The translations under genes and the position numbers were made by a program. DNA of 64,000 bases from Phycisphaerae bacterium (GTDB taxonomy: Bacteria; Planctomycetota; Phycisphaerae; UBA1845), in NCBI GenBank assembly GCA_963666835.2, contig CAXXGO010000005.1, positions 160,001 through 224,000 of the forward strand, written 5' to 3'. Position 1 is the first letter of the stretch; every line of letters begins with the position of its first letter. Positions 20,430 to 35,313 of this stretch are shown here, piece by piece. The notes under the pieces are model-generated. The model was given only the letters and a program-made list of their open reading frames with translations. It made no database searches and had not been told where the DNA came from.

Positions 20430-20804
20430 CTAACGAGTGCGTTTAGTATCTGTAAGCTGTACATACAAGGTCTCCAGTTCCCCGTCGCCAGTTAGCACGT
20501 ATGCGACGTGCATGTAGTGTGTCTTTCCGTTGCCGAGCGGGACCACCACTCGATAATCGCCCGGTCCTTCTTCCGTGATCAGACAATCCGTACGGGTCGA
20601 TGCTTCGAGGTACGGCTCCACTTCGATAAGAGACGCGGCGTAGCGCCCATTCTCGGCCTTATACGCCGCAACCGCGTCACGGATGATCCCGGTATGCCAA
20701 TGCCGGACATTGCTTTCAATGTCAGGCACCAGGATCCACGCAGCAACGCAAAGGAGCACGGCTGCGCAGGAGTGCATCGCAAGTCTCCGTCTTGGAGTTG
20801 TCAT
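20430..20804 (-). CDS. Hypothetical protein with N-terminal TM helix
   Basis: ATG overlaps the stop of the upstream ORF (ATGA); AAVLLCVAAWILVP hydrophobic stretch. Confidence 0.5.
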   Translation of the reverse strand: MTTPRRRLAMHSCAAVLLCVAAWILVPDIESNVRHWHTGIIRDAVAAYKAENGRYAASLIEVEPYLEASTRTDCLITEEGPGDYRVVVPLGNGKTHYMHVAYVLTGDGELETLYVQLTDTKRTR

Positions 20805-21205
20805 AGCTGTCTGCTTTCGGCATCGAAGGCCCCCTGATTCTGCTTCTCTTGCAAGCATACCGTCCGCCGGCGTAACCTCCGCTCGACGGGCAAGAGCAAG
20901 CAAGCCAGGATCCCCGACCCGAGCATGACGAGCAGCACGGGAAACTGCAAGCAGAATCGCCCATCATTCAACTCCAACCGAAAGCTGCTATCCACATTGT
21001 CCCAAGCAATACTCGACCCTTCACTAAGGCCTCCATAGAGCCGAAAGGCCATCCCGCTACATCCGACTTCCCAGCCTTCGGCCAGGTCGATGCTCCATCG
21101 TCCTCCCGTGGTCATGACGACAACAACGTGAAACAACAGCGCACCACTCACAATGGTCGCAAGCCACCTCATCCGGCGGACGAATCGTACACGCTTGAGC
21201 ACCAT
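20801..21205 (-). CDS. Hypothetical two-TM membrane protein
   Basis: ORF with two hydrophobic helices; purine-rich RBS; 12 bp downstream of the preceding gene. Confidence 0.5.
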   Translation of the reverse strand: MVLKRVRFVRRMRWLATIVSGALLFHVVVVMTTGGRWSIDLAEGWEVGCSGMAFRLYGGLSEGSSIAWDNVDSSFRLELNDGRFCLQFPVLLVMLGSGILACLLLPVERRLRRRTVCLQEKQNQGAFDAESRQL

Positions 21206-21217
21206 GCCGTCTCTCTC

Positions 21218-22234
21218 CTACGGTTTGTCAGGGGCCTTTTCAGTGGATGATTGCCGCTCCTTCTTCTCCTTTGCCCGGAAGAGCTGTTCGTCTATCTTGT
21301 AACGAAGTTCCGCAACCTCCTGTGACGAAACGTCGGTTTGCGGATAACGCGCGATCGCTGTTTCCAGCACCTCGCGGGCACGCTGTGCATCATCGAGGCG
21401 AGTCAGCGACTTCACCGCCTGGAACAGCAGATTGTCTGCCAGCGGAAACGACTCGTGCTCATTGGCGAACTTCAGGGCGCGTTCGACCGCCGGCGTCCCC
21501 TCTTCCACGTCCTTCGTTCTCATCGCATAGAACGTGTCCCAGTAATCGACCCACAGCGAGAAGACTGAGTTCGGGCATTCCTCCCTGATGTACCGGAGCT
21601 TCCGCCGCACCTCGTCCGGGTCGCCGCCGCACGCCCAGGTAGCATCCGGCCCGGGTGTGCGGGAGACACCCTGCGCGTAGTATGGCACCTTGGGCAGTAT
21701 TTCCAAGACGCGGGCATCCTCTCCTTGTGCCTCAGCCACCGTCAGCTCAAACGGCTCCGATTGGACCACCGGAGGACAACGCAGCGCCCCGTAGACCCGA
21801 TATCGCCCCGGTGGCAGGAAGTGCGGTCCATTGGTCACACCTTGCCCATCTCCGCCTGCGAGGCCCTGCAGACACATCACATGATCCGTCTCTAGGCGTG
21901 CCCCCGGAGGGAACGGAGCTCCTGGAGCTCGAGCGCCGTCACCAGCGAGAAGGCGCAAGGGTTTGAGAGTATGCTCCCGTCCTTGCGCGTCGACCGCATA
22001 GAGCGTGAACAGGTCATAGGCCTTCATGCTGCTCCCGCGCTTGAAGTACATATGCCGGGTTGCGTCGCCACGGTTCTCCAGAACGATCCGAAGAACAAGT
22101 GGGCCGCCTTGCACCACAGTGTTCTCATACGGGCGGACCGCGAGATTCAAACCTCCACTATCCCCGCCAATCGGCGGGGCACTCCACAGTGTTGCCGATA
22201 GCAGCGTAATCATTCCGTAACTTAACATCGCCAC
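21218..22234 (-). CDS. Secreted partner-family protein, paralog 5 (Ig-like + TPR-like); orphan without its own peptidase cassette
   Basis: Signal-like N-terminus; FLPPGRYRV and CPNSVF/YPQT motifs shared with the other four paralogs. Confidence 0.7.
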   Translation of the reverse strand: MAMLSYGMITLLSATLWSAPPIGGDSGGLNLAVRPYENTVVQGGPLVLRIVLENRGDATRHMYFKRGSSMKAYDLFTLYAVDAQGREHTLKPLRLLAGDGARAPGAPFPPGARLETDHVMCLQGLAGGDGQGVTNGPHFLPPGRYRVYGALRCPPVVQSEPFELTVAEAQGEDARVLEILPKVPYYAQGVSRTPGPDATWACGGDPDEVRRKLRYIREECPNSVFSLWVDYWDTFYAMRTKDVEEGTPAVERALKFANEHESFPLADNLLFQAVKSLTRLDDAQRAREVLETAIARYPQTDVSSQEVAELRYKIDEQLFRAKEKKERQSSTEKAPDKP

Positions 22235-22329
22235 GCGCCTGCCTTCCTACATCGCCGATGTTGATTCCTTACTCCTGCTGGGTCTCTCCGGCACTTAGCA
22301 TCTCCTGCGGACAATCCTGCAACACACCT

Positions 22330-22387
22330 CGCAAGATCCACCAGGCAGCACCGAACGGAATCACCCGCTCGGTGCCGCGGGGTGGCA
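22330..22387 (-). repeat. Cassette-junction hairpin element, copy C (diverged)
   Basis: GCACCGAACGGAATCACCCG..GTGCCGCGGGGTGGCA shared with 24996-25080 and 29032-29116. Confidence 0.85.
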
Positions 22388-22514
22388 TTGGATCAGCAAC
22401 CATGTCCAACAATAGCGGCGTACGTTCCTGCCGTATCCGAGCCGGCGGGCGAGGAAGTACCCGCTCGACGGCAGATCCCCTCAACAAATACTCCCGACCC
22501 ACTCCCCGCCTCGG

Positions 22515-23462
22515 TCATCCGCTGATACCCCACGTCTTCAGCGCGGAAGCAGCCCTTGGACCGTAGTCCAAGGAGTACGGAGACTGCTCGACTCGCTCCA
22601 GGAGGCCCTTCGCCTTTCGCCGAATGCTTGCCGCCTCGGAAGAGGGTTTGTCCTGCTGACGCTTCAGTAGGTCGAGCTCCACAAGGGCGAGCGTGTAAGC
22701 CGCATTGGCCTCGGATTGCGAACGGACCTCGCCGCCGCAGTACGGCTCGTAGTACCGCCGCGCTACCGCTACGCGCTCGCGTAGGAGGTCATCGATGTCC
22801 ACGCCGGGGCCGCCGCGCAGTGCCGCCAGCTTCACCGTACCGAGGAATACACTCAGGCGGGCGGTATAAGCGGTGTCTGGATGCCGCTGGAGCATCCGTT
22901 CCACCCGCGGAGCCAACTGCCTGGCTCGGTTGTCTGTCGGGTTGAGAATGCCAATCGCAAACTCGACGCCAAGTTCCCGAATCATCGCAAGCAGCTCCCG
23001 TTCATGATCCGTAGGCTGCTCAACGACAACGTCGACCTTTGCGCCTGGATACAGTTCCACACTATAGGCGCCTGGGGCTCCGAAGACGTATTGCCTATCC
23101 TCCGTATTCCAGTATAGCATTGCTACGACCTGGACCACGCTCGCGCCACTGTCTTCCCGCATGACGGATGATCTGTTCAAGGACGTCATGACTACCGGAT
23201 TGGCGTTGAAGCTCAAAAGGTACTCTCTCTCGTTTATCAGTATACGACTAAAGAGTTTTGTCAAAACGCTCTCCAACCCGACGTGATCCGAGTGGGATTC
23301 TATTTCCACATCCAGGACTACAAACGCGGGTTGACAGGGCTTAATGTGAACCGTCTGAGGGGATGATATGCGGACGGAACGGATCATGGACTCGCCATGA
23401 GCCACCGGTGACATCAGACAGTGTGTTACAATAATGTACGTTAGATACCGACTTCCTACCAT
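22515..23462 (-). CDS. Secreted partner-family protein, paralog 4 (cognate of cassette 23456-25006)
   Basis: Start overlaps the cassette stop (ATGGTAG); signal peptide ending VAHG; YVFGAPGAYSV and HPDTAY motifs. Confidence 0.72.
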   Translation of the reverse strand: MVGSRYLTYIIVTHCLMSPVAHGESMIRSVRISSPQTVHIKPCQPAFVVLDVEIESHSDHVGLESVLTKLFSRILINEREYLLSFNANPVVMTSLNRSSVMREDSGASVVQVVAMLYWNTEDRQYVFGAPGAYSVELYPGAKVDVVVEQPTDHERELLAMIRELGVEFAIGILNPTDNRARQLAPRVERMLQRHPDTAYTARLSVFLGTVKLAALRGGPGVDIDDLLRERVAVARRYYEPYCGGEVRSQSEANAAYTLALVELDLLKRQQDKPSSEAASIRRKAKGLLERVEQSPYSLDYGPRAASALKTWGISG

Positions 23463-25006
23463 TTCTCTACCTCCCGAAAACGCTTCAACGTTGGACTTGT
23501 GAATGTCGTATGCACCTCCTGCAGATTGGCGGACATCAAACCGCCTTCGGCATGATGCTCTGCTTCCGTACCGGTGTTGCCAGCCGAGTGTCCGATCTCA
23601 TGGGCCAACACTTGATCCTCGAAATAATCATACTGCGGCACATCGGCGATCGTGGCCCTAAAGACAATACTGTCCCAATCGCCAATACTCCCCATCCATC
23701 CGCTTTGCTCCGTCTCGTTATACTCGGCGCCAGGCCAGAATGGCCCGGAGGGATACGTAGAGTTGTCCACCAGCGGATCGGGGTCCATATCCCGGTGGCC
23801 AGCCGCAACAACATCGCCGCCCGCCTGATACCCTGCCATGACAAAGGTCGTCCAAAACTGATTGCTCGAAAAGCGATCTTCCCGGGAGTCATTCCACCCC
23901 CAACCACTCGTCATCTGAGTCCACGTAACATAGAGATCGAACGGTATAGTCCGAGTGAGATTGTATTGTTCATCGAGCTCGACGATGTCGACGTACGCCT
24001 GGGCGAACGCGTTGCGGATGAAATCGTCTACCGTGTAGAAGTGGGGCAGGAGTGGCTCGATGGGATCATCGTCCCTCTCCACCGCCCAATGGCCTACCAG
24101 GGCATTGATCTCAGCGGCTGTAAGAACAACGTCGATATCGACCGTCGAACGCGCGTTGTTCCACACGGAATACTCCAGGCCAAGGGCCTGAAAGATCAAT
24201 GATCCCCCTTCGTATTGATGTTCACTTGCCCCTTGTGAGAACACTCCAAGGTCCAGCGTAGTGGTTGTTGCATTAGCAGTTCCTCCCGTTACATACACGC
24301 CGAACCAGTCCGGCTCCCGCTCCATCGGGTCTGTCGGTTCGCTAGTCATCGAATCGAACTCCACATGCAGCTTCCGCCAGACGGTCAGCATCTCGCTCCA
24401 GACGAGTGGGACGCTGTAGAAGGAGCCGCCGTAGGGCCCTGGATAGAAGTCGGGCGGATCACCGTCGGGAAACGAGCTGAATTCATCCGCGTGGGTCTGA
24501 GTCACTTGGTCCTCGCCGATTGCATCCTCCAGGCACGAGGCCCCGGCACGGTAGTTGTTGCCCGGCTGCATGGATACCTCGATCGTCACCACGGCTCGCC
24601 GATTGTCATCGGTTTTCGCGGCGTACGTGCCCACGGCCGGGTCCGGTTGGCCCGACGGCATGCGATTATCCGGCCCCGACTCGTCGTTGTCGATAAGCTC
24701 GACCTCGCGGACGGTGTTGACTCCCTGTGGTCCGTAGATCTGATCGAACGGATCATCCACGTCCCAGACCCTGAAGTGTACACCAATCCCAGCCACAGGC
24801 GGATGAACCGTGGCCACGAGGTTCACCTTCCGCCTGTCCGCCGCGAAGTCACCGTCGCCCGGATTCGTCAACCCCGGAAAAATCCGGCGTCCGCCGTTGA
24901 TCGGGCATCCGTCCAACTCCGGATTACCCGCCGCGGCCACCTCCCACTCGAGCCGGGTGACTTCGAAGACGAGGATCTCGAAACCTGCCCACGGCCAAGA
25001 CCGCAC
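23456..25006 (-). CDS. Headless (orphan) C-terminal metallopeptidase cassette 2
   Basis: Homologous to the last ~490 aa of 31528-35166 (NGG.RIFPG, FRVWDVDDPF, QPGNNYRA, MLTVWRKLH); HEIGHSAG...HH...GGLM; no signal peptide or RBS, and an in-frame TAA just upstream of the GTG. Confidence 0.8.
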   Translation of the reverse strand: MRSWPWAGFEILVFEVTRLEWEVAAAGNPELDGCPINGGRRIFPGLTNPGDGDFAADRRKVNLVATVHPPVAGIGVHFRVWDVDDPFDQIYGPQGVNTVREVELIDNDESGPDNRMPSGQPDPAVGTYAAKTDDNRRAVVTIEVSMQPGNNYRAGASCLEDAIGEDQVTQTHADEFSSFPDGDPPDFYPGPYGGSFYSVPLVWSEMLTVWRKLHVEFDSMTSEPTDPMEREPDWFGVYVTGGTANATTTTLDLGVFSQGASEHQYEGGSLIFQALGLEYSVWNNARSTVDIDVVLTAAEINALVGHWAVERDDDPIEPLLPHFYTVDDFIRNAFAQAYVDIVELDEQYNLTRTIPFDLYVTWTQMTSGWGWNDSREDRFSSNQFWTTFVMAGYQAGGDVVAAGHRDMDPDPLVDNSTYPSGPFWPGAEYNETEQSGWMGSIGDWDSIVFRATIADVPQYDYFEDQVLAHEIGHSAGNTGTEAEHHAEGGLMSANLQEVHTTFTSPTLKRFREVEKW

Positions 25007-25080
25007 TGCCGCAAGTTATCGCAAACCACCCGCGGCACCGAACGGAATCACCCGCCCAGTGCCGCGGGGTGGCACTAATG
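24996..25080 (-). repeat. Cassette-junction hairpin element, copy A
   Basis: 85 bp with 2 mismatches to 29032-29116; folds into a 21-bp stem on the minus strand. Confidence 0.9.
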
Positions 25081-25986
25081 TAATGACTACGCCGGGCCGT
25101 CAAAACAACTCCCGATCCCGGTATTCGGCCCCTTTCTTCTTCGGTGCTTTTGTCTATATCTATGGACTTGACGCGCGGACCTTCTGACGCTCCGCATTCT
25201 CGAAGCGTTCCCTGACGACCGGGATCCCTTCGCGCGCCTCGTCAATGAGACCCTGAACGGTACCTTGTCCGGGAGCCGCGACCTTGGCCGCTGACAGCAA
25301 CCGCTGCGCCGCTTCGAAATCCAGAGCAATCATGCGCAAGTATCCGTGCTGATACAGCGCACGCGGTTTCAGATAATCATCCGCGTGCTCGGCAGCTAAC
25401 TCGAATGCTCGGAAAGCCCGTGCTGACTTGTCGCTCTGCATTATCAACTCGGCCCGGCGCGTTCCCTCTTCAAGGTCGTCTCGACGTTCTCCTTGCTTCC
25501 TCTCGTCCCGTAGCACATTCCTGGCATCGCCAAGGCATAACCCCGAATAACAACAGCCCGCAAAGTACGCGGCGTATGGCGCGTAACTGGATTCCGGAAA
25601 CTCCTGTGCCAAAGCCGCCAGAGAATCAGCCCAGCGCAACGCGGGTTCGAACCCGCCGCACTGCCCGACAATCGCGCCCGGCTCCCTCGCTCGTGTGGCC
25701 TCTAAGATCTCTCCGACCACCAGCAAGGCACGCCAGTCAGCACCGGCAGGACTTGCCGCCCAGGTTCGCCTTCTCTCATCGGGGAGGTTCGCGAGCGGAT
25801 CGCTCCCAAGCAAGTCTGCAAGGAAGTCCGACTCGCTAACACGTTCGATGAACGCTCGGTCCGGCTCACCGGCCGGCAGAACCGTAACGCTCCGCTCAAT
25901 TGTAAGAGGCTCGGTCTCATCGTCCTTGAATGCAACCTGCCAGCGCAGCCGGCATTCGCCCGGGTGTTCGAAAAGGAATCGCTCTT

Positions 25987-27028
25987 CCTGATTCTCTACT
26001 TGACTCCGGCGGCTAAGTACGGTATTTGTTAGGGCTTACGATTTCATGGTTCATGGAGGAGGTCGGCCATGTCTGACGAGATTCGCCCGAAGCATCCCGT
26101 GCCCAAGATCTTGGATGTAGCGTCGTTTATGCGTCGCTTCGGAGATGATGCGGCCTGTGCCGCGTATCTGCGTAAAGCTCGCTGGGGACCGAACCTGGAA
26201 CGGTTCGTCTGCCCGGACTGTGGGCATAGCCGCGGATGGTGGCTCCCGACCCGGGGGCTCGTCGAGTGCCGGGAGTGTCACCATCAGACCTCACCGACGG
26301 CCGGCACGGTGTTTCACGGTGCCCGCGTGCCGCTCTGGAAGTGGTTCTGGGCTATGTATCAAGAGGCTCACTCGAAGAAAGGCCTCGCGGCCACGGCGTT
26401 GGCCAAGCAGATCCAGGTCTGCTACCAGACTGCCTGGATGATGCTGCAGAAGCTCCGCGAGGCCATGCGTCAACGATGCCAACGTTATGTCCTGCAGGGA
26501 CTTGTGGAGGTCGACGAGACATACGTTGGCGGCCGGGAACCGGGTCGGCCGGGGCGTGGAGTGGAGAAGAAGGTCCCAGTGGGAGTGGCCGTCGAGCTTG
26601 ACGAGAACGACCGGCCTAAGCGAATCGCCATTCAGGGACTGAAAAGCGTCGACGCTCGAAGCCTGAGGGGTTTCACGACGAGACACGTAGCGAAGGGCTC
26701 ATGTCTCCGGACGGACGGATGGGGAAGTTACGTTTCAGTGGCCAAGGCCGGGTACGAGCACGAGGCAATCGTGACGGGCGGTGGGAAGAATGCGGTTCAA
26801 ATTTTCCCCTGGGTTCACACCTTCATCGGCAACCTGAAGCGGATGATTGTGGGCACATATCACAGCGTTTCGCCCAAACACCTCGACCGTTACCTGGCCG
26901 CGTTCACCTATCGGGCCAACCGTCGCTGGATGGAAGCAAAACTCTTCGATCGCCTTGTTATCGCGGCCGTAGCTGCCAAACCACTGACATTAAAGGAGTT
27001 AACCACCGGAGCGAGGTAGAGAATCAGG
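25987..27028 (+). mobile_element. IS1595-family insertion sequence, 1042 bp
   Basis: Imperfect ~30-bp TIRs (left CCTGATTCTCTACTTGACTCCGGCGGCTAA; right, reverse-complemented, CCTGATTCTCTACCTCGCTCCGGTGGTTAA); 8-bp direct repeat TCGCTCTT at 25979-25986 and 27029-27036. Confidence 0.95.
26069..27019 (+). CDS. IS1595-family (ISXO2-like) transposase, possibly ISSod11-type
   Basis: Zn ribbon CPDC/CREC, VEVDETYVGG, RTDG, WVHTFIGNLKR, YL..F.YR.NRR; GGAGGAGG RBS; stop codon lies inside the right TIR. Confidence 0.95.
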   Translation: MSDEIRPKHPVPKILDVASFMRRFGDDAACAAYLRKARWGPNLERFVCPDCGHSRGWWLPTRGLVECRECHHQTSPTAGTVFHGARVPLWKWFWAMYQEAHSKKGLAATALAKQIQVCYQTAWMMLQKLREAMRQRCQRYVLQGLVEVDETYVGGREPGRPGRGVEKKVPVGVAVELDENDRPKRIAIQGLKSVDARSLRGFTTRHVAKGSCLRTDGWGSYVSVAKAGYEHEAIVTGGGKNAVQIFPWVHTFIGNLKRMIVGTYHSVSPKHLDRYLAAFTYRANRRWMEAKLFDRLVIAAVAAKPLTLKELTTGAR

Positions 27029-27374
27029 TCGCTCTTTTCCTACACCCCAATGTGCCGCAAGCGGCGTCAAAACGATCGTCTTCTCCTCAGAGTACGCTAT
27101 TGATCCGAGAAACTCGCCCGTTCGGTCGGGATCGGTATCAGCGAATTCATACTTCTCCCCGTCGGTGCTTGTCCAAAGCGACACATTCCTGACTTCACCG
27201 CGGTTCGGGAAAGCCATCCTCTGTACGATACAGCTCTTCGAACCTACCGTATTCTCCACCTGTGCATTTGGCTCGGTGGCAGCGGCATTGTATGCCGGTG
27301 CAAACGTCAGAGAAACCACCACAGCCAAACACCGTACCGTAAGTTGTTTCGCGTGCATTATCATATCTCTCAGA

Positions 27375-29042
27375 TTAAGGTCCACAGTAGTTTCTAAGTC
27401 TGTTGAGGCTCTCGCCAGCGAAGGGCAAGTCCTGCCCTGGGCCCTTCGGGTCCATCAGTCCGACCGGCGGACCTTCGCCCTCGTAGGTGTGCGGAAGCCC
27501 AAGTGTATGCCCGACCTCGTGAGCCACGGTGAAACGCTCCTGGCGTTCTGATTCCGCAGGGCCCAGCGATATTGCCTTGAAGACGACGGCTAGCCCGGTG
27601 GCGGAATCCGGTAGCAGCACGTGCGCCTTTGTGTTACCGTCAGGGTGACTACAAATGCCGAGTGTTGTCCCAGGATCTGCCAGCTCTGAATCTGGGTCGC
27701 CATCCTGGTTTGCCTCAGCTTGCCATGCGGACACGACCATCACAGTCCAGTACGCAGAAGTAGACTTGGGTAAGTCTCTGACTCCCGGAGCCGTTACGTC
27801 ATCCCAGAGGTCCTTGCCATAGAAATCAGTGACCCCAAAGCCCTGGTTTCGCCGAAACGGAAGACTACCCAAAGCGCTCAAACCGCTCTCATGCACGGGA
27901 TGGATGAAGGCAGATCGATAGCGAACCTCGAGAGCACTCAGATCCGGAGGTTCAAGTGCGCCTGGCCCACCGGTGTACAGGCCGTCACATCCCCATACTT
28001 GGGCCGCGAATGTCCCCTCCTCCGACAGATCGTCATCACTGAGCACAGCCTTGCCGCTTTGCACACCTTGCAGACAAGCCAGGCCGCTTATACCGCCACC
28101 GCAGTCAGGGATATTGATAGTTACTTCGTCTTTGAAGTCCAGGTCGTCGATGATCCCCTCATCGGTGGTGTAGTCGACGATGCGCCCGACGACCAGTGGG
28201 TTTCCGGCCGAGTCGCTGACTTCGGCATAACCATGCAGAAACTGTTGGTCATCCGTATCCGAATCGTCCGCCGGCGGATCATCCACTTCGAATCGCACTT
28301 GCGTGGACACCGGTCCCTGCTCTGGCTCGCTCCAGTCCATTTCGAACGTATTCTGTCCGAACGTTGGTCGCATCATGCTATCCGTCTCCACGTGCAGCTT
28401 CCGCCAGACCGTCAGCATCTTGCTCCAATATAGTGGGGTCCGGTAGCTGAACGCGTTGCCGCCTCTGTGGAACTTCGGCGGATCGCCGTGGAGCGATGTG
28501 CAGAGTTCGTCGGCGTGGGTCTGGGTCACCTGGGGTTCGCCGATTGCATCCTCCAGGCACGAGGCCCCGGCACGGTAGTTGTTGCCCGGCTGCATGGATA
28601 CCTCAATCGTGACCACGGCACGCCCATTATCATCCGTTTGCGCGGCGTATCTGCCCACGGCCGGGTCCGGCTCGCCCGACGGCATGCGATTGTCCGGCCC
28701 CGACTCGTCGTTGTCGATAAGCTCGACGCCCGCAACCGGCTGCACACCGTCGCCGGGCGCACCGTTCGGGCCGTAGACCTGATCGAACGGATCATCCACG
28801 TCCCAGACCCTGAAGTATACCCAGATGTCTCGCTGCGGCGGCTCGACGTACGCCGCGAGCTTCACCTTCCTCCGGATCACCCCCAACTGGTCGCCCGGAT
28901 GCGTCAACCCCGGGAAGATCCGCTTGCCGTGGTTGATCGGACATCCGTCCAACTCCGGATTACCGGCCGCGGCTACCTCCGACTCTAGCCGGGTGACCTC
29001 GAAGACGAGGATCGGGACGCTTGCCGACCGGCAAGACCGCAC
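27375..29042 (-). CDS. Headless (orphan) C-terminal metzincin cassette 1
   Basis: Same homologous start point as cassette 2; MLTVWRKLHVETDSM; HEVGHTLGLPH plus GLMD Met-turn; no signal peptide or RBS, and an in-frame TAA just upstream of the GTG. Confidence 0.8.
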   Translation of the reverse strand: MRSCRSASVPILVFEVTRLESEVAAAGNPELDGCPINHGKRIFPGLTHPGDQLGVIRRKVKLAAYVEPPQRDIWVYFRVWDVDDPFDQVYGPNGAPGDGVQPVAGVELIDNDESGPDNRMPSGEPDPAVGRYAAQTDDNGRAVVTIEVSMQPGNNYRAGASCLEDAIGEPQVTQTHADELCTSLHGDPPKFHRGGNAFSYRTPLYWSKMLTVWRKLHVETDSMMRPTFGQNTFEMDWSEPEQGPVSTQVRFEVDDPPADDSDTDDQQFLHGYAEVSDSAGNPLVVGRIVDYTTDEGIIDDLDFKDEVTINIPDCGGGISGLACLQGVQSGKAVLSDDDLSEEGTFAAQVWGCDGLYTGGPGALEPPDLSALEVRYRSAFIHPVHESGLSALGSLPFRRNQGFGVTDFYGKDLWDDVTAPGVRDLPKSTSAYWTVMVVSAWQAEANQDGDPDSELADPGTTLGICSHPDGNTKAHVLLPDSATGLAVVFKAISLGPAESERQERFTVAHEVGHTLGLPHTYEGEGPPVGLMDPKGPGQDLPFAGESLNRLRNYCGP

Positions 29043-29116
29043 TGCCGCAAGTTACCGCAAACCACCCGCGGCACCGAACGGAATCACCCGTCCAGTGCCG
29101 CGGGGTGGCACTAATG
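29032..29116 (-). repeat. Cassette-junction hairpin element, copy B
   Basis: 85-bp near-identical copy of 24996-25080. Confidence 0.9.
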
Positions 29117-29190
29117 CCTTAAGTGTGGTCGGCCTTCAGGTATATCTCTTATTCAGCCAAACCGCCCGCGCAGTCATGCTTCGTGCAACA

Positions 29191-30123
29191 CTATCGTTCT
29201 TCTGTCTGGCGGGTCTCCTTCAGTAGTTGCGCCGCTTTCTGAGCAGACTTACTATTCGGAAATTCCGATATGAGAGTCTGCGCCACCCGGCGCGAGTCCG
29301 CAATATCGTCGGCGAGCGCATAAGCGACAGCCAGATCAAGGAGGGCTTTCTCTCGAAGCGGATGCCAGCCATCGAAAACAGATGCCGCCTTCCTCAGCTC
29401 CGTGGCAACTGGTGCCCATACCCGTGGATCGGCTCCGCTGTTATGCGCCGCAAAGGTGGTCTTGTATTGCATCAATGCAAGGGATACGATTGCGTACTCA
29501 CCGTATGGGGTGTCGGGGAACTCGCGAGCGAGATGATCAAAACGTCGAAGTGTCTCCTCGCTTCCCTCATGTTCGAGAATCGCAGTCAGCGCAACCGGAA
29601 AGCTGCTGCGAAAAAACTCCGCAGCCTCTCGCCGGGTCTTCCCCGGGTTGCGAACCGTGATCGCGATGGGGTTGGACTCGAGACCGTATTCGCGGTCGCG
29701 TACGAGCAAGGTGTACGCGCCCGTGTGCTCCGAGTGTACAAAATCCCCTCCACGATCACGCTCTTGGGGGAATGCAAGGCCCGATGTCGTGAATTCGCTG
29801 GCTGGTCCGTCAGTCGGCACGAACTCCGCGCCGCACAGCAGGCCTTTGCACACCATCTTGTTGTTTGGATCTTGAAGCACGATATCAAAACGTCGACGTA
29901 GCCTGCGCAGTTGCCTGGCGGCCTCGCGGGGATCATCTGCACCCGGACGGAACGGTTCCTCCAGATGTACAGTGACCTCAACGGCAAGTGGTTCGTATAG
30001 CAGGAAGCTCTCTTTACAGACGTTTGCCGTCAGCGAATCACCGTTGGCATGCGGTGCTATGAGCGTCAAACAGAAAACCAACGTGAGTCCGAAATTCAGT
30101 GGTCCAATCGACCTTACGCACAT
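29191..30123 (-). CDS. Secreted partner-family protein, paralog 2
   Basis: Signal peptide ending HANG; HTGAYTLLV, FPDTPYGEY and FPNSKSA motifs; ATG at 30123 after GGAG. Confidence 0.72.
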   Translation of the reverse strand: MCVRSIGPLNFGLTLVFCLTLIAPHANGDSLTANVCKESFLLYEPLAVEVTVHLEEPFRPGADDPREAARQLRRLRRRFDIVLQDPNNKMVCKGLLCGAEFVPTDGPASEFTTSGLAFPQERDRGGDFVHSEHTGAYTLLVRDREYGLESNPIAITVRNPGKTRREAAEFFRSSFPVALTAILEHEGSEETLRRFDHLAREFPDTPYGEYAIVSLALMQYKTTFAAHNSGADPRVWAPVATELRKAASVFDGWHPLREKALLDLAVAYALADDIADSRRVAQTLISEFPNSKSAQKAAQLLKETRQTEER

Positions 30124-30163
30124 AATGTTAAACTCCAAAAGGATGCTAATCGACTTCTGTAAT

Positions 30164-30280
30164 CTACCAGGTGGCCTCGCGCCGGAATATCACAATTGAC
30201 TCGGCGGCGAAGTCGGCCAGATCCACGTCGCCGTCGAGATCTGTGTCGAAAGCCATCAGACAGGCATGCAGTCGCCGGCC
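30164..30280 (-). pseudogene. Chimeric remnant: dockerin-like EF-hand fragment joined to a peptidase-cassette C-terminal tail
   Basis: Manual translation ACLMAFDTDLDGDVDLADFAAESIVIFRREATW*; the tail resembles FLAESLKTLREYVEP*, FAGESLNRLRNYCGP* and FTSPTLKRFREVEKW*. Confidence 0.5.
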
Positions 30281-30335
30281 TCGCCGCGTGAATAATTGCC
30301 CGACCCTCTTCAGCGAAATCGCCGGTCTCGCATAC

Positions 30336-31457
30336 CTATGGACTGGTTGCTTCCCTTGCCTTTCGGGCTTCTATCTTTTCGCGGAAACGTTGCATTTGCC
30401 CCTCAAGCTTGTCCGCGATTCCCGGCCCACCAATGTCCGGACACTGTTGGCGCAAGGCGCCCAGGTATTCGCTAGTCTTCTCCCATTCCTGCGCAAGACC
30501 GTGTAGCCAGACCAAGTTCTCCAGCGCCGCCGTGCGCGGCCAGACATTGGCGTCTTTCGCCATCGTGAGATAATGCAGTGCTTTCACGTAGGCGGGATGC
30601 GCTCGGGCTCTTTCGGGATCGCGCTCGAGCCAACCCGCCAAACTTGCTTCGTGTTCCAGGGTCTTGACGTATACCAATCCAAGGTACCGCGCGATGTAGC
30701 CCGAGTACACTGAATCCGGGTAACGCTCCAGCGTTTTCGCCAATGAATCGACCAGCTCCATTTCTCGCTTGTCATCGGGGTCGATAAGGTACGGCTTGGT
30801 CTCGCTGGTGATCTGTGCCAGAAGCAGAATTCCCTCCTGGTCCAGCCCCTTCTCCGCCTCCGGTGCGTTCAGGTCCAAATGGTCCGCATCGTCTCCGATG
30901 TGGTAACGCAGTGCGATCAGTTCAAGCTGCGCGAGGCATTCCTCGTTAACACGTGACATCGGAAGCACGGTCACCCGGGTCTCATTGCTGTAGACGAGCG
31001 CCTTTCCTAGGCCCGAATAGAAGTTCCATCGAAGATGGTACTCACCGGGGTTCGGAAATACGTAGTCGTTTCCAAAATCCAGTAACACCAGGACATCGCC
31101 CGTAGTTGTTTTGCGCGGCCCCAATTTTTTCTCGGTGCGTTGGGGGCCGCTACGTTCCAAGGAAAGCGAGTGCTCGCTATACGGTCCATTATCGCAGGAC
31201 GTTTCAAGGGCCATTCGCACCGGCGCACCGCCAGGCCGCACGAGCAGCGTAAGCGGCTCGTCCCGCAGATTCCTCACTCTGACGTGGGCGATGATCGGTT
31301 CCCGCGCCTCAAAGGTCGAACGTTCCAGGTTGACATCAAACGCCACGACCTGTGAAAACGCAAGTGCTTGCTCGCCGTTCGCCATCTGACCTAATGCTGC
31401 CGCGACGGTCACCCCTTGCAACAACAAGCCTTTCGTCAAGTTGGTAGTCAAAGTCAT
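30336..31457 (-). CDS. Secreted partner-family protein, paralog 1 (cognate of the full-length gene)
   Basis: AAGGAG RBS; signal-like N-terminus; YVFPNPGEYHLRW and YPDSVYS motifs; helical TPR-like C-terminus. Confidence 0.75.
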   Translation of the reverse strand: MTLTTNLTKGLLLQGVTVAAALGQMANGEQALAFSQVVAFDVNLERSTFEAREPIIAHVRVRNLRDEPLTLLVRPGGAPVRMALETSCDNGPYSEHSLSLERSGPQRTEKKLGPRKTTTGDVLVLLDFGNDYVFPNPGEYHLRWNFYSGLGKALVYSNETRVTVLPMSRVNEECLAQLELIALRYHIGDDADHLDLNAPEAEKGLDQEGILLLAQITSETKPYLIDPDDKREMELVDSLAKTLERYPDSVYSGYIARYLGLVYVKTLEHEASLAGWLERDPERARAHPAYVKALHYLTMAKDANVWPRTAALENLVWLHGLAQEWEKTSEYLGALRQQCPDIGGPGIADKLEGQMQRFREKIEARKAREATSP

Positions 31458-31527
31458 CTTCTCACTCCTTCGTGCTCGGTCAAGTTACCTTGATGTCCTA
31501 ACCGCAGCATACCGCTGCTTCTCAGAT

Positions 31528-34500
31528 CTATGGCTCAACATACTCGCGGAGCGTCTTAAGGCTCTCCGCAAGAAACGCCGGCCCCTGTTCAGTCTCGTCC
31601 ATTAAGCCACCGTCGCCGGGAATTGCATGAGCGCCCAAATGTGGTGCGCCTAGCGTGTGGGCAATCTCGTGCGCTACAACCCGCGGCGCCTGAACATCAG
31701 CGTAACCGTCTCGCAACGTCTCGCTGAAGACCGCCGCCATCCCGGTGTATGAGTCGCCCCAAAGCAACGGGGGCGAAGTACTTCCCTCGCGATGCGTCGT
31801 TGCCCCCTTCGTACCCGTGCCTTCTCCGTCACAATCGGCACTCGCCTCCGCCTGGAACGCAGAGAAGATATAAACGGTCCAGAAGGTAGCCCTCGAAACC
31901 GGCAGCCCGCGGAGCACCAAGCGCCCGGGATCCCAGTTCGCTTTGGTTTCGGGCCTGAAGTTCTTGTAGAAAGGATACGCCCCTTCGGAGGTGTACTGCG
32001 GCTCTACCACGGGAAGAATATAGGCAGGCTCATACACCTCCTGGAGCTGAGATGTGTCAGGAAGCAATAGGAAACCGTTTGGAGGTGCGCCCACGCCAAT
32101 GATACTGCCGACGACGCCGGCGGTGAAGAGGGCCTCGTTGCCCAAGTCGTCGTCGCTAGCCACGAAGTTTCCTGAACTGGGGCGCGCTCCCCAAGTGGCC
32201 TCCTTGATATCCGTACGAATTGGGTCGGCCCCGGCCGAGGACTCGTGGTCGATGATCCTGCTGATCAGATCAGGGAATCCCGCAGCTTGGATGCGTATGT
32301 ACCCATTCTCGAGATCGTCGTAGAAGGGCTGATCCGATATGTCGACCCAGAGTTGGTTGCCTATGAAACGCGGCTCGTTCCATTGCCCGGTAACAGTGTT
32401 CTCGGCGAATGTGGGGCGGGCCATGCTGTCGGTCTCGGCGTGCAACTTCCGCCAGACCGTCAACATTTCGCTCCAGACCACCGGGGTTTTGTAGCCGGAC
32501 CAATCCCTGCCGAGGGTGTTGATTGCGTCCGCGTCCGCCTGATCCACCTGCTTCACGTGGACCGGACCGTCCGTGAGCACTCCGTCCAGGCAGGTCGCGG
32601 CCGCCCGGAAGTTGTCGCCCGGTTGTCGCGAAACCGTAAACGTCATTCGAGCCCGCCCGCTGGAGTCTGTCGTGGCAGAGCCGGTCTTATTACCCGATGC
32701 ACCTCGATTGTCGCAGCCAATGGCATCGTTGTCGATCACGTCAACGTCCGGCATGTTCGGATGAGACTCATTGAACGGATCGTCCACGTCCCAGATCCGG
32801 AAGTTGACGCCTACCCCGGAGATCGGCGGCTCGATGATGGCCTCCAACGCTACACTCCGCCGGGCGTTCGTGAACAGATCGTCCTTGTCCAACTTGCCCG
32901 GGAAGATGCGCTTGCCGCCGTTGTTCCGACACTTGTCCAGCGGCAGATTGTCGCCTGCCCCCTGAACCTCGGATTCCCTCGCCGTGTCCCATCTTAATGA
33001 CGACACCTTCACCACCGGGATCGGTTCAGATCGCCCGTAACAATGCACCGGAGGATCGTGTACCGGGTTACAGAGCCGGTAATCGCACACAAGCACGCCA
33101 CAGGCCGTAGAAGCCACAATACCCTCGGCGAAGGCCGTAGTCGGCACCGGCCAATCGGAACCGCCGGGCCATCGCGAGGACTTGTTTGCCTGCTTGTACA
33201 TGTTCACGCCCTCCGCGAGAATGTGGATATGAACACCGTCCGAAGGCGGATCGGGGCAGTGATCTCCTTCTTCCGTCGGACAGCCGGCCGTGTATACGTG
33301 AAGCTCCCGAAGATCGTCCTCGTTGTTGACGGGACCGAACTCTTCACAGTCCGGCACGCCGTTGCGATTGTCGTCGTCATTATTGACGTGCAGAAACGGG
33401 GGGAGGTCGCGGAAGAGCTCACAACCGTTCGGACCACAACCCGTCTCCGGATCTTCCGGCGGCCAGCGCTCCGTGTAGAAGCACTCCTCATACTCATCGC
33501 CACAGGACACGTCCGTGCACGGATCCGGTCTCTCGCAGCAGAAGGTCTCCCAGTCGTCATCCTCGTCGGGTTCACAACATACGCCGTTACAGCAGTCTTC
33601 GTTGCAGCATTCACTGTCCGTCGGACAGCACTCGCCCTCGCAGCATTCTCCGTTCTTGGGGCAGCAATAGTAATCGGGCTGTCCGCCTTGGTCTCGCTCG
33701 CAGCATTGCTCCCCCGGAAAACAGTACGAATCGCCGCAGCAAACGACCCAGTAAGGACGGCAAATCGTCCCGCCATCCGGCAGGTCACAGCACTGTCCGT
33801 CGCAGCACTCGTCGTCGCAGCAGTCCCAGCCGGGCTCGCAACACTCCCCATCACAGCAACGTTCGTTAGGCTCGCAGCATTCATCAACACAGCATTCCTG
33901 GTGAAGTCCGCAGCACCCGCCCGGACAGCACCGCTCCCGCTCACAACACGACTGGCGAGCGCAGCAGATAGTCCCGAGGCGACAACTACCCTCGATACAG
34001 CCCGGAGTGTAGCAGTCTGTAAGATCGTCGAAACCGGGCGGAAGATTCGGCGTCCCACCACCGATGCCAACGGGAAGGCAGTCAATATACGGAGCATCGT
34101 TCGGGATCAGTATGACTTCCCGGGTCGGATCGGGCTGACCGGATGAGTCGAACGCCAGCAGGTACTCAATCATCTCCACGCTGGCTCGTTCCCACGTGGT
34201 GGCGTCTTCGTCTTGCGACCAGGCCGCGTCTATCGCGTTGGAGACCACCGCGACCTCGGCGGCCAGGCTCTGCGCGTCGATTCCGAGATCGCGCTCGAGG
34301 TTTACGACCGCATGGCCGACGTCCAACAGATCGAAAATCGGGCGTTCGAACACGAAGAGCCGATGGCTCTCGAAATCGTGCCAGAGCGCGACGTACGTGC
34401 CGCTCGTCCCGTCGACCGCCTCGGGGCCGGATGCTGCGTCAACGTCATCTTGGTCGGCCGGTCGTTGCTCGGGTTCGAAAGCGACTGACTCGTCGGCCCA

Positions 34501-35166
34501 TCTTTCGGATTCCGCAACGCTCGGCTCGGCAGGCCATTCCTCATCCTCCCAAGCAGTCGGATCACTGGCCCACTCCTCGGAATCCGTAGCGGTCGGTTCG
34601 TCGGCCCATTCCTCCGATTCTAACGCAGTCGCGTCATCGGGGTCTTGCCATTGACCCGCGTACTCCGGCGGCGCGCCCGGGTAGTCGAGCGGATCCGCAG
34701 ATCCGTGCGGGCCCGGGTCGTCAAGCTCCTGCCACTGATCCGCATACTCCGCCGGTGGGCCGGGATTCTCCGCGGTGCCGCCGCCGTCGTGGATCAAGAG
34801 GATTCCGACGTCGGTAACCACCCGAATCCGCAGCACACCCCGCACGGGCTCGTCCGGGTCGGGGCCGTCCCGCGGATCGACCACCGCAACGTACGGCTCT
34901 TCCCCGGTAAGCTCGGGGCCTTCCGACGTGCGGGCCTCGACCTGCGGGAAGAACGCCAGCGCGATCAGCATCCCCAACCCCACGGCCAGGGCTATCCCGC
35001 CTGCAATAGGTCGGAGTACCCCCCACGGTCGCCCAGTCAAACGCGGAGGCCGCGCAGACTGCCCATGCTCGAAAGAGCCCGCAAGCCCCGGTCGCCCCCG
35101 CGAGCACGGAGGCCGCGGCACGCGCCTCAGGCGGCTTCGATCTCGTCCGTGATACGTCCTTTTCAT
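31528..35166 (-). CDS. Full-length membrane-anchored/secreted multidomain protein: TM, acidic Trp repeats, Cys-rich repeats, conserved linker domain, C-terminal metzincin
   Basis: GIALAVGLGMLIALAFF helix; SEEWADEPTA-like repeats; CC-x-CC run; NNDDDNRNGVPD; HEIAHTLGAPH...GGLMD; start placed at MKRTYH. Confidence 0.82.
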   Translation of the reverse strand: MKRTYHGRDRSRLRRVPRPPCSRGRPGLAGSFEHGQSARPPRLTGRPWGVLRPIAGGIALAVGLGMLIALAFFPQVEARTSEGPELTGEEPYVAVVDPRDGPDPDEPVRGVLRIRVVTDVGILLIHDGGGTAENPGPPAEYADQWQELDDPGPHGSADPLDYPGAPPEYAGQWQDPDDATALESEEWADEPTATDSEEWASDPTAWEDEEWPAEPSVAESERWADESVAFEPEQRPADQDDVDAASGPEAVDGTSGTYVALWHDFESHRLFVFERPIFDLLDVGHAVVNLERDLGIDAQSLAAEVAVVSNAIDAAWSQDEDATTWERASVEMIEYLLAFDSSGQPDPTREVILIPNDAPYIDCLPVGIGGGTPNLPPGFDDLTDCYTPGCIEGSCRLGTICCARQSCCERERCCPGGCCGLHQECCVDECCEPNERCCDGECCEPGWDCCDDECCDGQCCDLPDGGTICRPYWVVCCGDSYCFPGEQCCERDQGGQPDYYCCPKNGECCEGECCPTDSECCNEDCCNGVCCEPDEDDDWETFCCERPDPCTDVSCGDEYEECFYTERWPPEDPETGCGPNGCELFRDLPPFLHVNNDDDNRNGVPDCEEFGPVNNEDDLRELHVYTAGCPTEEGDHCPDPPSDGVHIHILAEGVNMYKQANKSSRWPGGSDWPVPTTAFAEGIVASTACGVLVCDYRLCNPVHDPPVHCYGRSEPIPVVKVSSLRWDTARESEVQGAGDNLPLDKCRNNGGKRIFPGKLDKDDLFTNARRSVALEAIIEPPISGVGVNFRIWDVDDPFNESHPNMPDVDVIDNDAIGCDNRGASGNKTGSATTDSSGRARMTFTVSRQPGDNFRAAATCLDGVLTDGPVHVKQVDQADADAINTLGRDWSGYKTPVVWSEMLTVWRKLHAETDSMARPTFAENTVTGQWNEPRFIGNQLWVDISDQPFYDDLENGYIRIQAAGFPDLISRIIDHESSAGADPIRTDIKEATWGARPSSGNFVASDDDLGNEALFTAGVVGSIIGVGAPPNGFLLLPDTSQLQEVYEPAYILPVVEPQYTSEGAYPFYKNFRPETKANWDPGRLVLRGLPVSRATFWTVYIFSAFQAEASADCDGEGTGTKGATTHREGSTSPPLLWGDSYTGMAAVFSETLRDGYADVQAPRVVAHEIAHTLGAPHLGAHAIPGDGGLMDETEQGPAFLAESLKTLREYVEP

Positions 35167-35313
35167 GATTCTGAGTCTCCGAAAGTGAGTCCGGCCCGCG
35201 ATCGAGTGAGCGCGAACCTCAAGCCCAAAGACCGCCGAATCCCGGGGAGGCAGTCGACGTGAATACTGCGAACCGACCCATGGGACGCTCGCTTCAAACG
35301 TCCTCATATTCTG

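Follow-up and report, generated by a model that had tools for sequence, protein, structure and literature searches.

Most known polymorphic toxin systems come from Proteobacteria, Firmicutes and Bacteroidota, and their trafficking domains form a fixed list. Secreted metzincins that have an inhibitor offer a second point of comparison: serralysin/AprA has the operon-encoded periplasmic AprI/Inh, and snapalysin has sermetstatin. A third is given by integron attC/VCR arrays and REP/RAYT repeats, i.e., strand-specific imperfect hairpins of ~60-120 nt that lie between same-strand units and are species-specific in sequence. We analysed a stretch of 64,000 nucleotides (the window) from a Phycisphaerae bacterium (contig CAXXGO010000005.1, positions 160,001 to 224,000), where an array on the minus strand carries a full-length gene with a C-terminal metallopeptidase tip, two headless open reading frames (ORFs) that cover only its C-terminal part (the cassettes), five genes of one partner family and three copies of a hairpin element. 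We document the architecture, family relations, synteny, fold and strain variation of this array. We read it, with a probability of about 0.6, as a polymorphic effector/immunity locus of the Rhs/CdiA/MafB type on a lineage-restricted scaffold, for which we infer export, toxicity, immunity and the role of the hairpin.

In the part of Jamet & Nassif (2015, PMC4436062) available to us, polymorphic toxins are defined by two exchanges, of different tips behind one head and of different heads before one tip; both are present here, so that the locus matches the two exchanges given there. The catalogue of Zhang et al. (2012, PMC3482391) includes, in the portion available, several metallopeptidase domains of polymorphic toxins (among them Tox-MPTase1-5, HopH1-like and ALF-MPTase), with some families in planctomycetes. 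In its rows for HExxH peptidase toxins, four of the seven entries (Tox-MPTase1, 2, 4 and 5) have RHS repeats as sole companions, and none of the Tox-MPTase entries has an immunity family.

A modular effector gene, its headless relatives and their partners

The full-length effector gene (31528-35307, minus strand) encodes 1259 aa in its longest ORF. The sequence-only reading of this DNA had started it at 35166, which is the alternative start Met48, and had assigned it a C-terminal HExxHxxGxxH/GLM domain; both the ORF and the motif are confirmed. From its N-terminus the protein has a basic region, a hydrophobic segment (~aa 97-120), acidic Trp-rich repeats, a conserved head domain (~aa 293-393), a Cys-rich CC-repeat stalk (~aa 430-610), an Ig-like pre-tip (~aa 761-945) and a metzincin tip (aa 946 to the end), with domain limits transferred from the structural model of cassette 1. 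The zinc-binding motif of the full gene (31642-31674, minus strand) reads HEIAHTLGAPH and is followed by GGLMD, and that of cassette 1 reads HEVGHTLGLPH followed by GLMD; the H, E, H and G columns are invariant in the alignment. Cassette 2 carries HEIGHSAGNTG, with no His at the third canonical place and HH 6-7 residues later. This variant is conserved in the relatives P0017 and P0018, and is thus a trait of a subfamily and not a sign of decay. The Met of the conserved G-L-M that follows the zinc motif is probably that of a Met-turn.

The fold of the tip was assigned by structure. The AlphaFold model of cassette 1, built on an alignment of 76 sequences (mean predicted local distance difference test, pLDDT, 88.8; predicted template modelling score, pTM, 0.90), was compared with 48,161 representative chains using VIA-align. 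Residues ~211-555 superpose on the snake-venom metalloprotease 3k7n (Z 13.0, root-mean-square deviation 3.5, 174 residues), and further metzincins follow: ADAM-8 (Z 12.8), adamalysin (12.5), TACE (12.4), archaemetzincin (11.8), ulilysin (11.6) and fragilysin (11.1). The snapalysin-sermetstatin complex 4hx3 is also among the fold matches of the tip. Residues 14-213 match Ig-like domains of intimin/invasin (Z 8.7 to 7.6). By this model the module comprises an Ig-like pre-tip and then a metzincin with an inserted beta domain. The metzincin match comes from VIA-align: Foldseek with the whole tip model returned only beta-sandwiches of the antibody/T-cell receptor kind (template modelling score at most 0.13). 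In sequence libraries the match of the tip is confined to the HExxH stretch and lies under every curated cut-off (the best score to the Pfam M12B reprolysin type being 21.9 bits against a cut-off of 27), and all Protein Atlas scores are below 0.9 and serve as leads only.

The tip is combined with many N-terminal regions. Its relatives among representative proteins number 904 at E<=1e-3, 280 at 1e-10 and 44 at 1e-30, and in them the tip follows N-termini of 18 to more than 1500 residues. The stalks before it differ as well: Dicty_CTDC Cys repeats, MBG/fn3, TSP3/Calx-beta or cadherin-like domains. A sample of 400 other genomes from across the phylum yielded the pre-tip domain in only 5.

The converse exchange, one head on different tips, is found within the genome itself. 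On contig C6, the gene at 2236241-2239570 is 87% identical in DNA to the window gene over its first ~1300 nt, from 75 nt upstream of the longest ORF to about residue 395, and diverges from there on. Together with the tips of the array that this gene heads (the sister array, described below) and those of related genomes, it places one N-terminal region before different C-terminal domains. Of 12 further genomes from the same family, 3 have the head domain, and a class-wide sample of 288 genomes from other families has none. Behind the head gene, two of these three relatives have a single ORF whose N-terminus is hydrophobic, with no orphan found there, the locus of the third being too short to judge. 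The tip of one relative ends in an HCGTN motif, which we take to be arginine-deiminase-like. The head profile also matches the N-termini of metagenomic proteins bearing the metzincin tip. The earlier claim that all tips are variants of one protease fold therefore holds at the window locus and not for the head at large, which elsewhere bears arginine-deiminase-type and other tips. A search for the head in a protein database clustered at 90% returned only the window's own protein and one that is 82% identical to it, the acidic repeats having probably swamped the word index. Neither scaffold nor partner has a Pfam or NCBIfam family above its cut-off, in agreement with the description of the scaffold as unfamiliar in the sequence-only reading.

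A six-frame search of the whole genome found the tip in exactly three copies: the full gene, cassette 1 (27375-29042, minus strand, 555 aa, Ig-like pre-tip domain plus metzincin; E 3e-99) and cassette 2 (23456-25006, minus strand, 516 aa; E 3e-76). Both cassettes align with the last ~500 residues of the full gene, lack the N-terminal trafficking part and have a partner gene of their own. As had been noticed from the sequence, they begin at one homologous residue (P/E-I-L-V-F-E-V against P-I-P-V-V-K-V in the full gene) and share an in-frame TAA four codons before the GTG, with no GGAG-like motif in the 20 nt preceding it and no signal peptide. Two headless metagenomic gene calls, P0006 and P0018, begin at this very position. 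The cassettes are 72% identical in amino acids over their first ~237 aa and divergent beyond (in DNA, 737 nt at 81%, with a longest exact run of 68 nt).

Partner genes are tightly linked to tips. We gathered the ORFs that lie behind tip homologues at 75 metagenome loci. Of the 57 tip genes with at least 1200 nt of downstream sequence, 53 are followed on the same strand by an ORF of 200 aa or more that starts between -80 and +250 nt of their stop. This bears out the linkage of a partner to each peptidase module that had been proposed for the window, where the two genes are adjacent and, by longest-ORF starts, overlap in two cases (27375-27385 and 23456-23462), not in one as first described. The five partners of the window are so diverged that pairwise searches connect only partners 1 and 4 (E about 1e-6). 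An iterated profile started from partner 1 converged after four rounds and joins all five, including both halves of the split partner 3, to ~45 of the downstream metagenome ORFs, the scores of these members being inflated by their inclusion in the model; the single divergent family of five copies that had been suggested is thereby recovered. Against the 93 window ORFs of at least 150 aa, this profile matched the five partners and no other. Of the 40 other aligned sequences, 38 are 13-20% identical to partner 1.

In the model of partner 1 (pLDDT 87.1), a hydrophobic helix at the N-terminus precedes a beta-sandwich (38-165) and a helical-repeat domain (169-371), and weak TPR/YbgF/BamD-like sequence matches fit the helical part. 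The helix is probably a signal peptide, and the partner may have an inhibitor or immunity role. Complex prediction, which the sequence-only reading had called for on all tip and partner pairs, was run on one pair, namely residues 758-1259 of the full gene with residues 31-373 of partner 1, both with alignments, alongside three controls. The median interface score (ipSAE) was 0.36 (runs 0.00, 0.51 and 0.36) and the best control gave 0.00; 116 of 157 solved complexes reach this mark, as do 2 of 215 mismatched pairs, and of these only 18 of the solved complexes and both mismatches score 0.60 or below. Run agreement was at least 0% and the pLDDT of the partner at least 74. The prediction nudges towards binding between tip and partner 1 without establishing it: the median lies above the controls, and one of the runs does not.

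Orphan modules recur in other organisms, as the sequence-only reading had anticipated in proposing to look for full-plus-orphan synteny. Of the metagenome contigs, 28 extend at least 600 nt past the first partner, and 12 of these (about nine of them independent, since three contig pairs are near-duplicates) have a further tip-like ORF downstream on the same strand, truncated in 11; four more contigs carry an extra partner only. The truncation points vary, from profile position 22 to 375. When eight such orphans were compared with the resident full gene, six shared with it 64-518 nt at 75-88% identity. Stretches homologous between full gene and orphan are thus found in other organisms as well as at the sister locus.

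The order of genes in the direction of minus-strand transcription is full gene, partners 1 and 2, cassette 1, partner 3, cassette 2, partners 4 and 5. Partner 1 (30336-31457, 373 aa) follows the full gene. Partner 2 (29191-30138, 315 aa) was assigned by the profile and has no tip of its own in front. Partner 3 (25160-27385), behind cassette 1, is split into ORFs 26999-27385 and 25160-25813 by an IS1595-family insertion sequence (IS) of 1050 nt (25979-27028, plus strand; transposase ORF 26069-27019), and both halves were recognised by the partner profile. Partner 4 (22515-23462, 315 aa), behind cassette 2, was found by both profile and pairwise search. Partner 5 (21218-22234, 338 aa), again assigned by the profile, is the last gene of the array and has no hairpin behind it. 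All five partners are on the minus strand.

A separate observation concerns the space between partners 1 and 2, where a stretch of ~32 nt (30204-30236) encodes D-L-D-G-D-V-D-L-A-D-F-A-A, presumably a dockerin/EF-hand-like motif. It is multi-copy, contigs of three runs continuing from it into unrelated sequence on both sides, and is possibly the remnant of a displaced coding end.

The hairpin element and the arrays that carry it

The DNA upstream of both cassettes is near-identical for ~95 nt beyond the ORF and folds into a hairpin with a 21-bp stem (-58 kcal/mol, z = -4.7). The full element is ~120 nt long and includes a smaller 5' hairpin; in the window its copies were annotated over 78 nt, all on the minus strand. 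Copy 1 (29053-29130) ends 10 nt before the GTG of cassette 1, copy 2 (25017-25094) lies directly 5' of cassette 2, and copy 3 (22330-22407) is followed by partner 5 only, without a tip. The common start point of the cassettes is set by this shared element plus leader. The element had gone unnoticed in the sequence-only reading, as had the IS1595 insertion.

Searches of the 6.0-Mb genome with BLAST and a covariance model found 16 strong copies (68-96 bits) and one weak copy, with scores of 20-38 bits on the reverse strand. Three of the strong copies are in the window, four in the sister array, eight in an array at C6 1062-1080 kb and one elsewhere, i.e., 15 of the 16 lie within three orphan arrays, one of which is of the RHS-repeat type. 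Each array has as many elements as orphan units, and no element lies behind its last unit, from which it follows that the element belongs to the 5' edge of the orphan. The lone copy outside the arrays (C1 1059940-1060016) lies behind a gene for a lipoprotein-like protein of 1053 aa (Laminin_B, PKD), and nothing toxin-like was seen downstream of it.

Variation between copies is concentrated on one arm, with 19 changed cells on the 5' arm and 2 on the 3' arm (counted by hand from the table, whose cells do not stand for independent events). These changes, all transitions, preserve G-U or U-G pairs, which indicates that selection acts on the structure of the sense strand, be it RNA or single-stranded DNA. 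The 3' arm, by the same comparison, is constrained in sequence.

The sister array (C6 2236241-2263480) has a head of the window type and four orphans, each preceded by the hairpin and starting in the Cys-rich stalk. Its partners are HEAT-repeat proteins, and one of its ORFs has a protein-arginine-deiminase (PAD) domain. The full gene shares 449-460 nt at 95% identity with each of the four orphans (4/4), with exact runs of 91-112 nt, and such stretches would be a classical substrate for recombination. The array also includes three tandem near-identical partner paralogues (2254891-2258982).

The third array (C6 1057000-1081000) encodes proteins with RHS repeats, with the hairpin in front of every headless Rhs unit. 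Of seven Rhs orphans tested, five start at one and the same nucleotide of the full gene, immediately after the element, and the join of a sixth falls inside a 9-nt stretch common to the 3' arm of the element and the Rhs gene. The same array holds a complete group II intron (L018 13094-15035; RF02005 at 146.6 bits, RF00029, and an ORF for a reverse transcriptase/maturase). We considered a link between intron and hairpin and rejected it, since the intron is not adjacent to any element.

Several known kinds of element were tried as explanations of the hairpin. It is followed by only TTT, and a consensus scan for canonical intrinsic terminators called none of the three window elements, terminator-like sites being at chance (11 against 11.9 expected); a consensus promoter scan likewise called nothing at the elements. 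No known RNA family was matched at gathering scores by Rfam in 134 kb, and two copies gave generic hairpin matches far below the cut-offs. The search for the hairpin in 60 genomes of the same family gave 3 marginal matches (25-27 bits), an exact 20-mer met 6 single chance matches among species-representative genomes, all in unrelated high-GC bacteria, and an exact 24-mer had 0 matches in the JGI metagenomes. At seven metagenome orphan junctions that were read, no comparable hairpin stood out. An integron was rejected: no IntI was found in the genome, which is 92% complete (TIGR02249 at best 89 bits against a cut-off of 265). No attC core motifs were noticed when the copies were read by eye. 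The genome has nine Y1_Tnp matches, none beside the arrays, and 16-17 element copies, which are clustered.

We tentatively favour, at somewhat less than even odds, an insulator or terminator-like RNA hairpin. It is also quite possible that the element is associated with recombination, as a hot spot or as a REP/RAYT-like or att-like site, and what probability remains goes to other roles, among them that of a promoter-leader. A more specific idea, which we regard as doubtful, is that of a dedicated, strand-specific cassette-boundary site, recognised as single-stranded DNA or RNA, through which orphan units of both the Rhs and the Cys-stalk kind would be captured, duplicated or moved between arrays, i.e., an integron-like or RAYT-like toxin cassette system that works without a classical integrase.

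Strain variation and alternative readings

Contigs of run X3, from a second study, span 29087-34198 with 2 differences. The same run joins 25978 to 27029, with 8 letters fitting both sides, so that the IS1595 element is absent from this near-identical strain. When the IS is removed in silico, the frame of partner 3 is open over 414 aa and matches positions 6-333 of the 348 of the profile. Another X3 contig joins hairpin 3 (up to 22396; 66 letters) to position 24003 in cassette 2, with undetermined letters between, and its remaining ~1.7 kb falls outside the window sequence. Judged from these joints rather than from the letters of the contig, the 3' half of cassette 2 and partner 4 appear to have been either replaced or rearranged in the second strain. 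A joint from 20580 to 31929 in run X5 was disregarded, one of its sides having only 26 letters.

Divergence from the second strain is uneven along the array: about 1 difference in 4000 in the region of the full gene and 26 differing positions out of 1598 in that of the last partner gene (20742-22339). In the acidic Trp-rich repeats (34479-34605) the second strain skips 125 nt, has 17 other letters instead and shows many substitutions.

In the mechanism that we propose, the product of the full gene would be exported or membrane-anchored and would present, on head, Cys-rich stalk and Ig-like pre-tip, a variable enzymatic tip, here an adamalysin-like metzincin. The secreted partner, with its beta-sandwich and helical repeats, would most likely bind its cognate protease and neutralise it outside the cytoplasm, acting as inhibitor or immunity protein. 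The headless ORFs may be former or foreign tips that kept pre-tip and partner genes and lost the trafficking part. Those of the window seem too diverged for ready recombination and probably form a store of immunity genes together with relics; the sister locus would retain recombination-competent orphans. The hairpin, finally, most likely insulates the orphan, as a terminator-like RNA hairpin, or marks or creates the recombination joint.

A number of results weigh against a polymorphic effector/immunity locus. Exact matches between the full gene and the two cassettes extend over no more than 17 and 13 nt, and the best-matching stretches measure 70 nt (80% identity) and 177 nt (67%); no recombination-competent stretch joins them at the window locus, and tip switching with the resident gene is therefore unlikely. 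The earlier suggestion that the cassettes swap in by recombination is thus not supported at this locus, and by sequence they are more likely to be displaced relics or immunity reserves than ready swap-ins. The ratio of nonsynonymous to synonymous substitution rates (dN/dS) between the pre-tip regions of the cassettes is 0.42, a value that does not tell whether these orphans remain under selection. The disruption of partner 3 by the IS1595 element is consistent with simple decay, as are many of the downstream metagenomic tip fragments, which are short (130-260 aa). For partner 1, Foldseek returned generic MG/CARDB/Fn3-like sandwiches and a low-quality match to the AsaP1 pro-enzyme, with no functional assignment, and the complex prediction is weak, with one of three runs at 0.00. 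Trafficking markers of the RHS, PAAR, TPS and LXG types were seen in none of the proteins scanned, RHS_repeat having no match in any window protein. The flanks of the array are housekeeping genes, threonine synthase upstream and an ECF-type sigma factor downstream.

Part of this evidence would fit housekeeping surface or secreted proteases accompanied by an extracytoplasmic inhibitor or chaperone. The array would then result from tandem duplication followed by decay, with the headless ORFs as pseudogene remnants devoid of any cassette or competition role, and the partner would shield the producer's own envelope or aid folding, as periplasmic inhibitors do for secreted serralysins. The difficulty with which the window cassettes would recombine with the full gene, the disrupted partner 3, the short tip fragments elsewhere and the lack of secretion-system or toxin-trafficking markers in the proteins scanned all agree with such a history, and the linkage of tip and partner suits an enzyme and its inhibitor as well as a toxin and its immunity protein. 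We nevertheless consider it unlikely. One head is found on unrelated tips, each with a different partner family; the partners are as extremely diverged as an arms race predicts; the cassette ORFs, of 516 and 555 codons, are intact; genuine Rhs orphans of this genome are bounded by the same hairpin; and a tip-plus-partner block appears to differ between near-identical strains.

Alternatively, the headless ORFs could be expressed independently, the ~120-nt element supplying a promoter-like TTGACG box and a structured 5' leader, and the protein being meant, for instance, to be released by lysis or vesicles or to act inside the cell. A conserved TTGACG does occur in the 5' half of the element, with an A/T-rich hexamer 17 nt later in many copies (by eye); all four orphans of the sister locus have an ATG 6-8 nt after the element; the hairpin is, through its G-U pairs, sense-strand-specific, as an RNA would be; and the start of the cassettes is shared by the headless metagenomic gene calls. 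The leaders of the window cassettes, however, have lost the ATG and carry the in-frame TAA, with neither signal peptide nor Shine-Dalgarno-like motif, and the promoter scan is silent at the elements. Moreover, a disulfide-poor metzincin of extracytoplasmic type would have, lacking an export signal, no obvious route to its secreted partner. We find this explanation highly improbable, and retain that of a polymorphic effector/immunity locus.

Comparison with known systems

The likeness to Rhs, CdiA and MafB loci, which the sequence-only reading had put forward, is borne out by the head with different tips, the synteny of tip and partner and the truncated downstream tips elsewhere. The locus shares with them a conserved N-terminal part, variable tips, a partner directly downstream and headless tip-partner modules, and further the conserved stretch kept in orphans (at the sister locus and in other organisms), the extra partners without a tip and, probably, differences between strains. 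Unlike them, the window locus has no RHS, FHA/TPS, MafB-N, PAAR or LXG region, and its trafficking part is made of an uncatalogued head, a Cys-rich stalk and an Ig-like pre-tip. The partners have an N-terminal helix resembling a signal peptide, so that any neutralisation would be extracytoplasmic. A conserved hairpin opens each orphan unit, and the recombination stretch has eroded in the window.

Toxins of the Tox-MPTase type resemble the present one in that a modular secreted protein ends in a HExxH zincin. Going by the descriptions in the available portion of the catalogue (PMC3482391), the tip would stand apart from those families: it has the complete metzincin signature (HExxHxxGxxH plus a probable Met-turn) and an inserted beta domain. 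The locus adds a putative trafficking scaffold uncatalogued in Pfam and NCBIfam, a large family of metzincin tips and a new, hyper-divergent family of secreted partners tightly linked to the tip, and it comes from a planctomycete lineage in which cell-cell antagonism has been little studied.

As in the serralysin/AprI and snapalysin/sermetstatin pairs, a metzincin gene adjoins the gene of a putative secreted extracytoplasmic binder. The inhibitors of those pairs are small and single-domain, and their loci lack head/tip modularity, orphans and hyper-divergent partners. Were the partners described here extracytoplasmic protease inhibitors, they would form a natural library of specific metzincin binders.

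A literature search, whose coverage leaves out most subscription journals, found no title or beginning of an abstract describing the scaffold or a hairpin that bounds orphan toxin modules. The nearest parallels to the hairpin are attC/VCR sites and REP/RAYT repeats, in which gene units that follow one another in the same orientation are likewise separated by a conserved imperfect hairpin, specific to one strand. The present element differs from integrons in that no integrase was found, that no RYYYAAC/GTTRRRY cores were seen by eye and that the units, of 2-5 kb, begin with 5'-truncated genes; from REPs it differs in having only 16-17 copies, nearly all in toxin arrays, and in that the Y1 transposase genes do not adjoin the arrays. 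Because it bounds orphans of two unrelated toxin families in one genome, it offers a handle on how orphan arrays are built and silenced. Set beside these systems, the locus is a real and well-supported variant of the polymorphic-toxin design with an unexplained, possibly novel boundary element.

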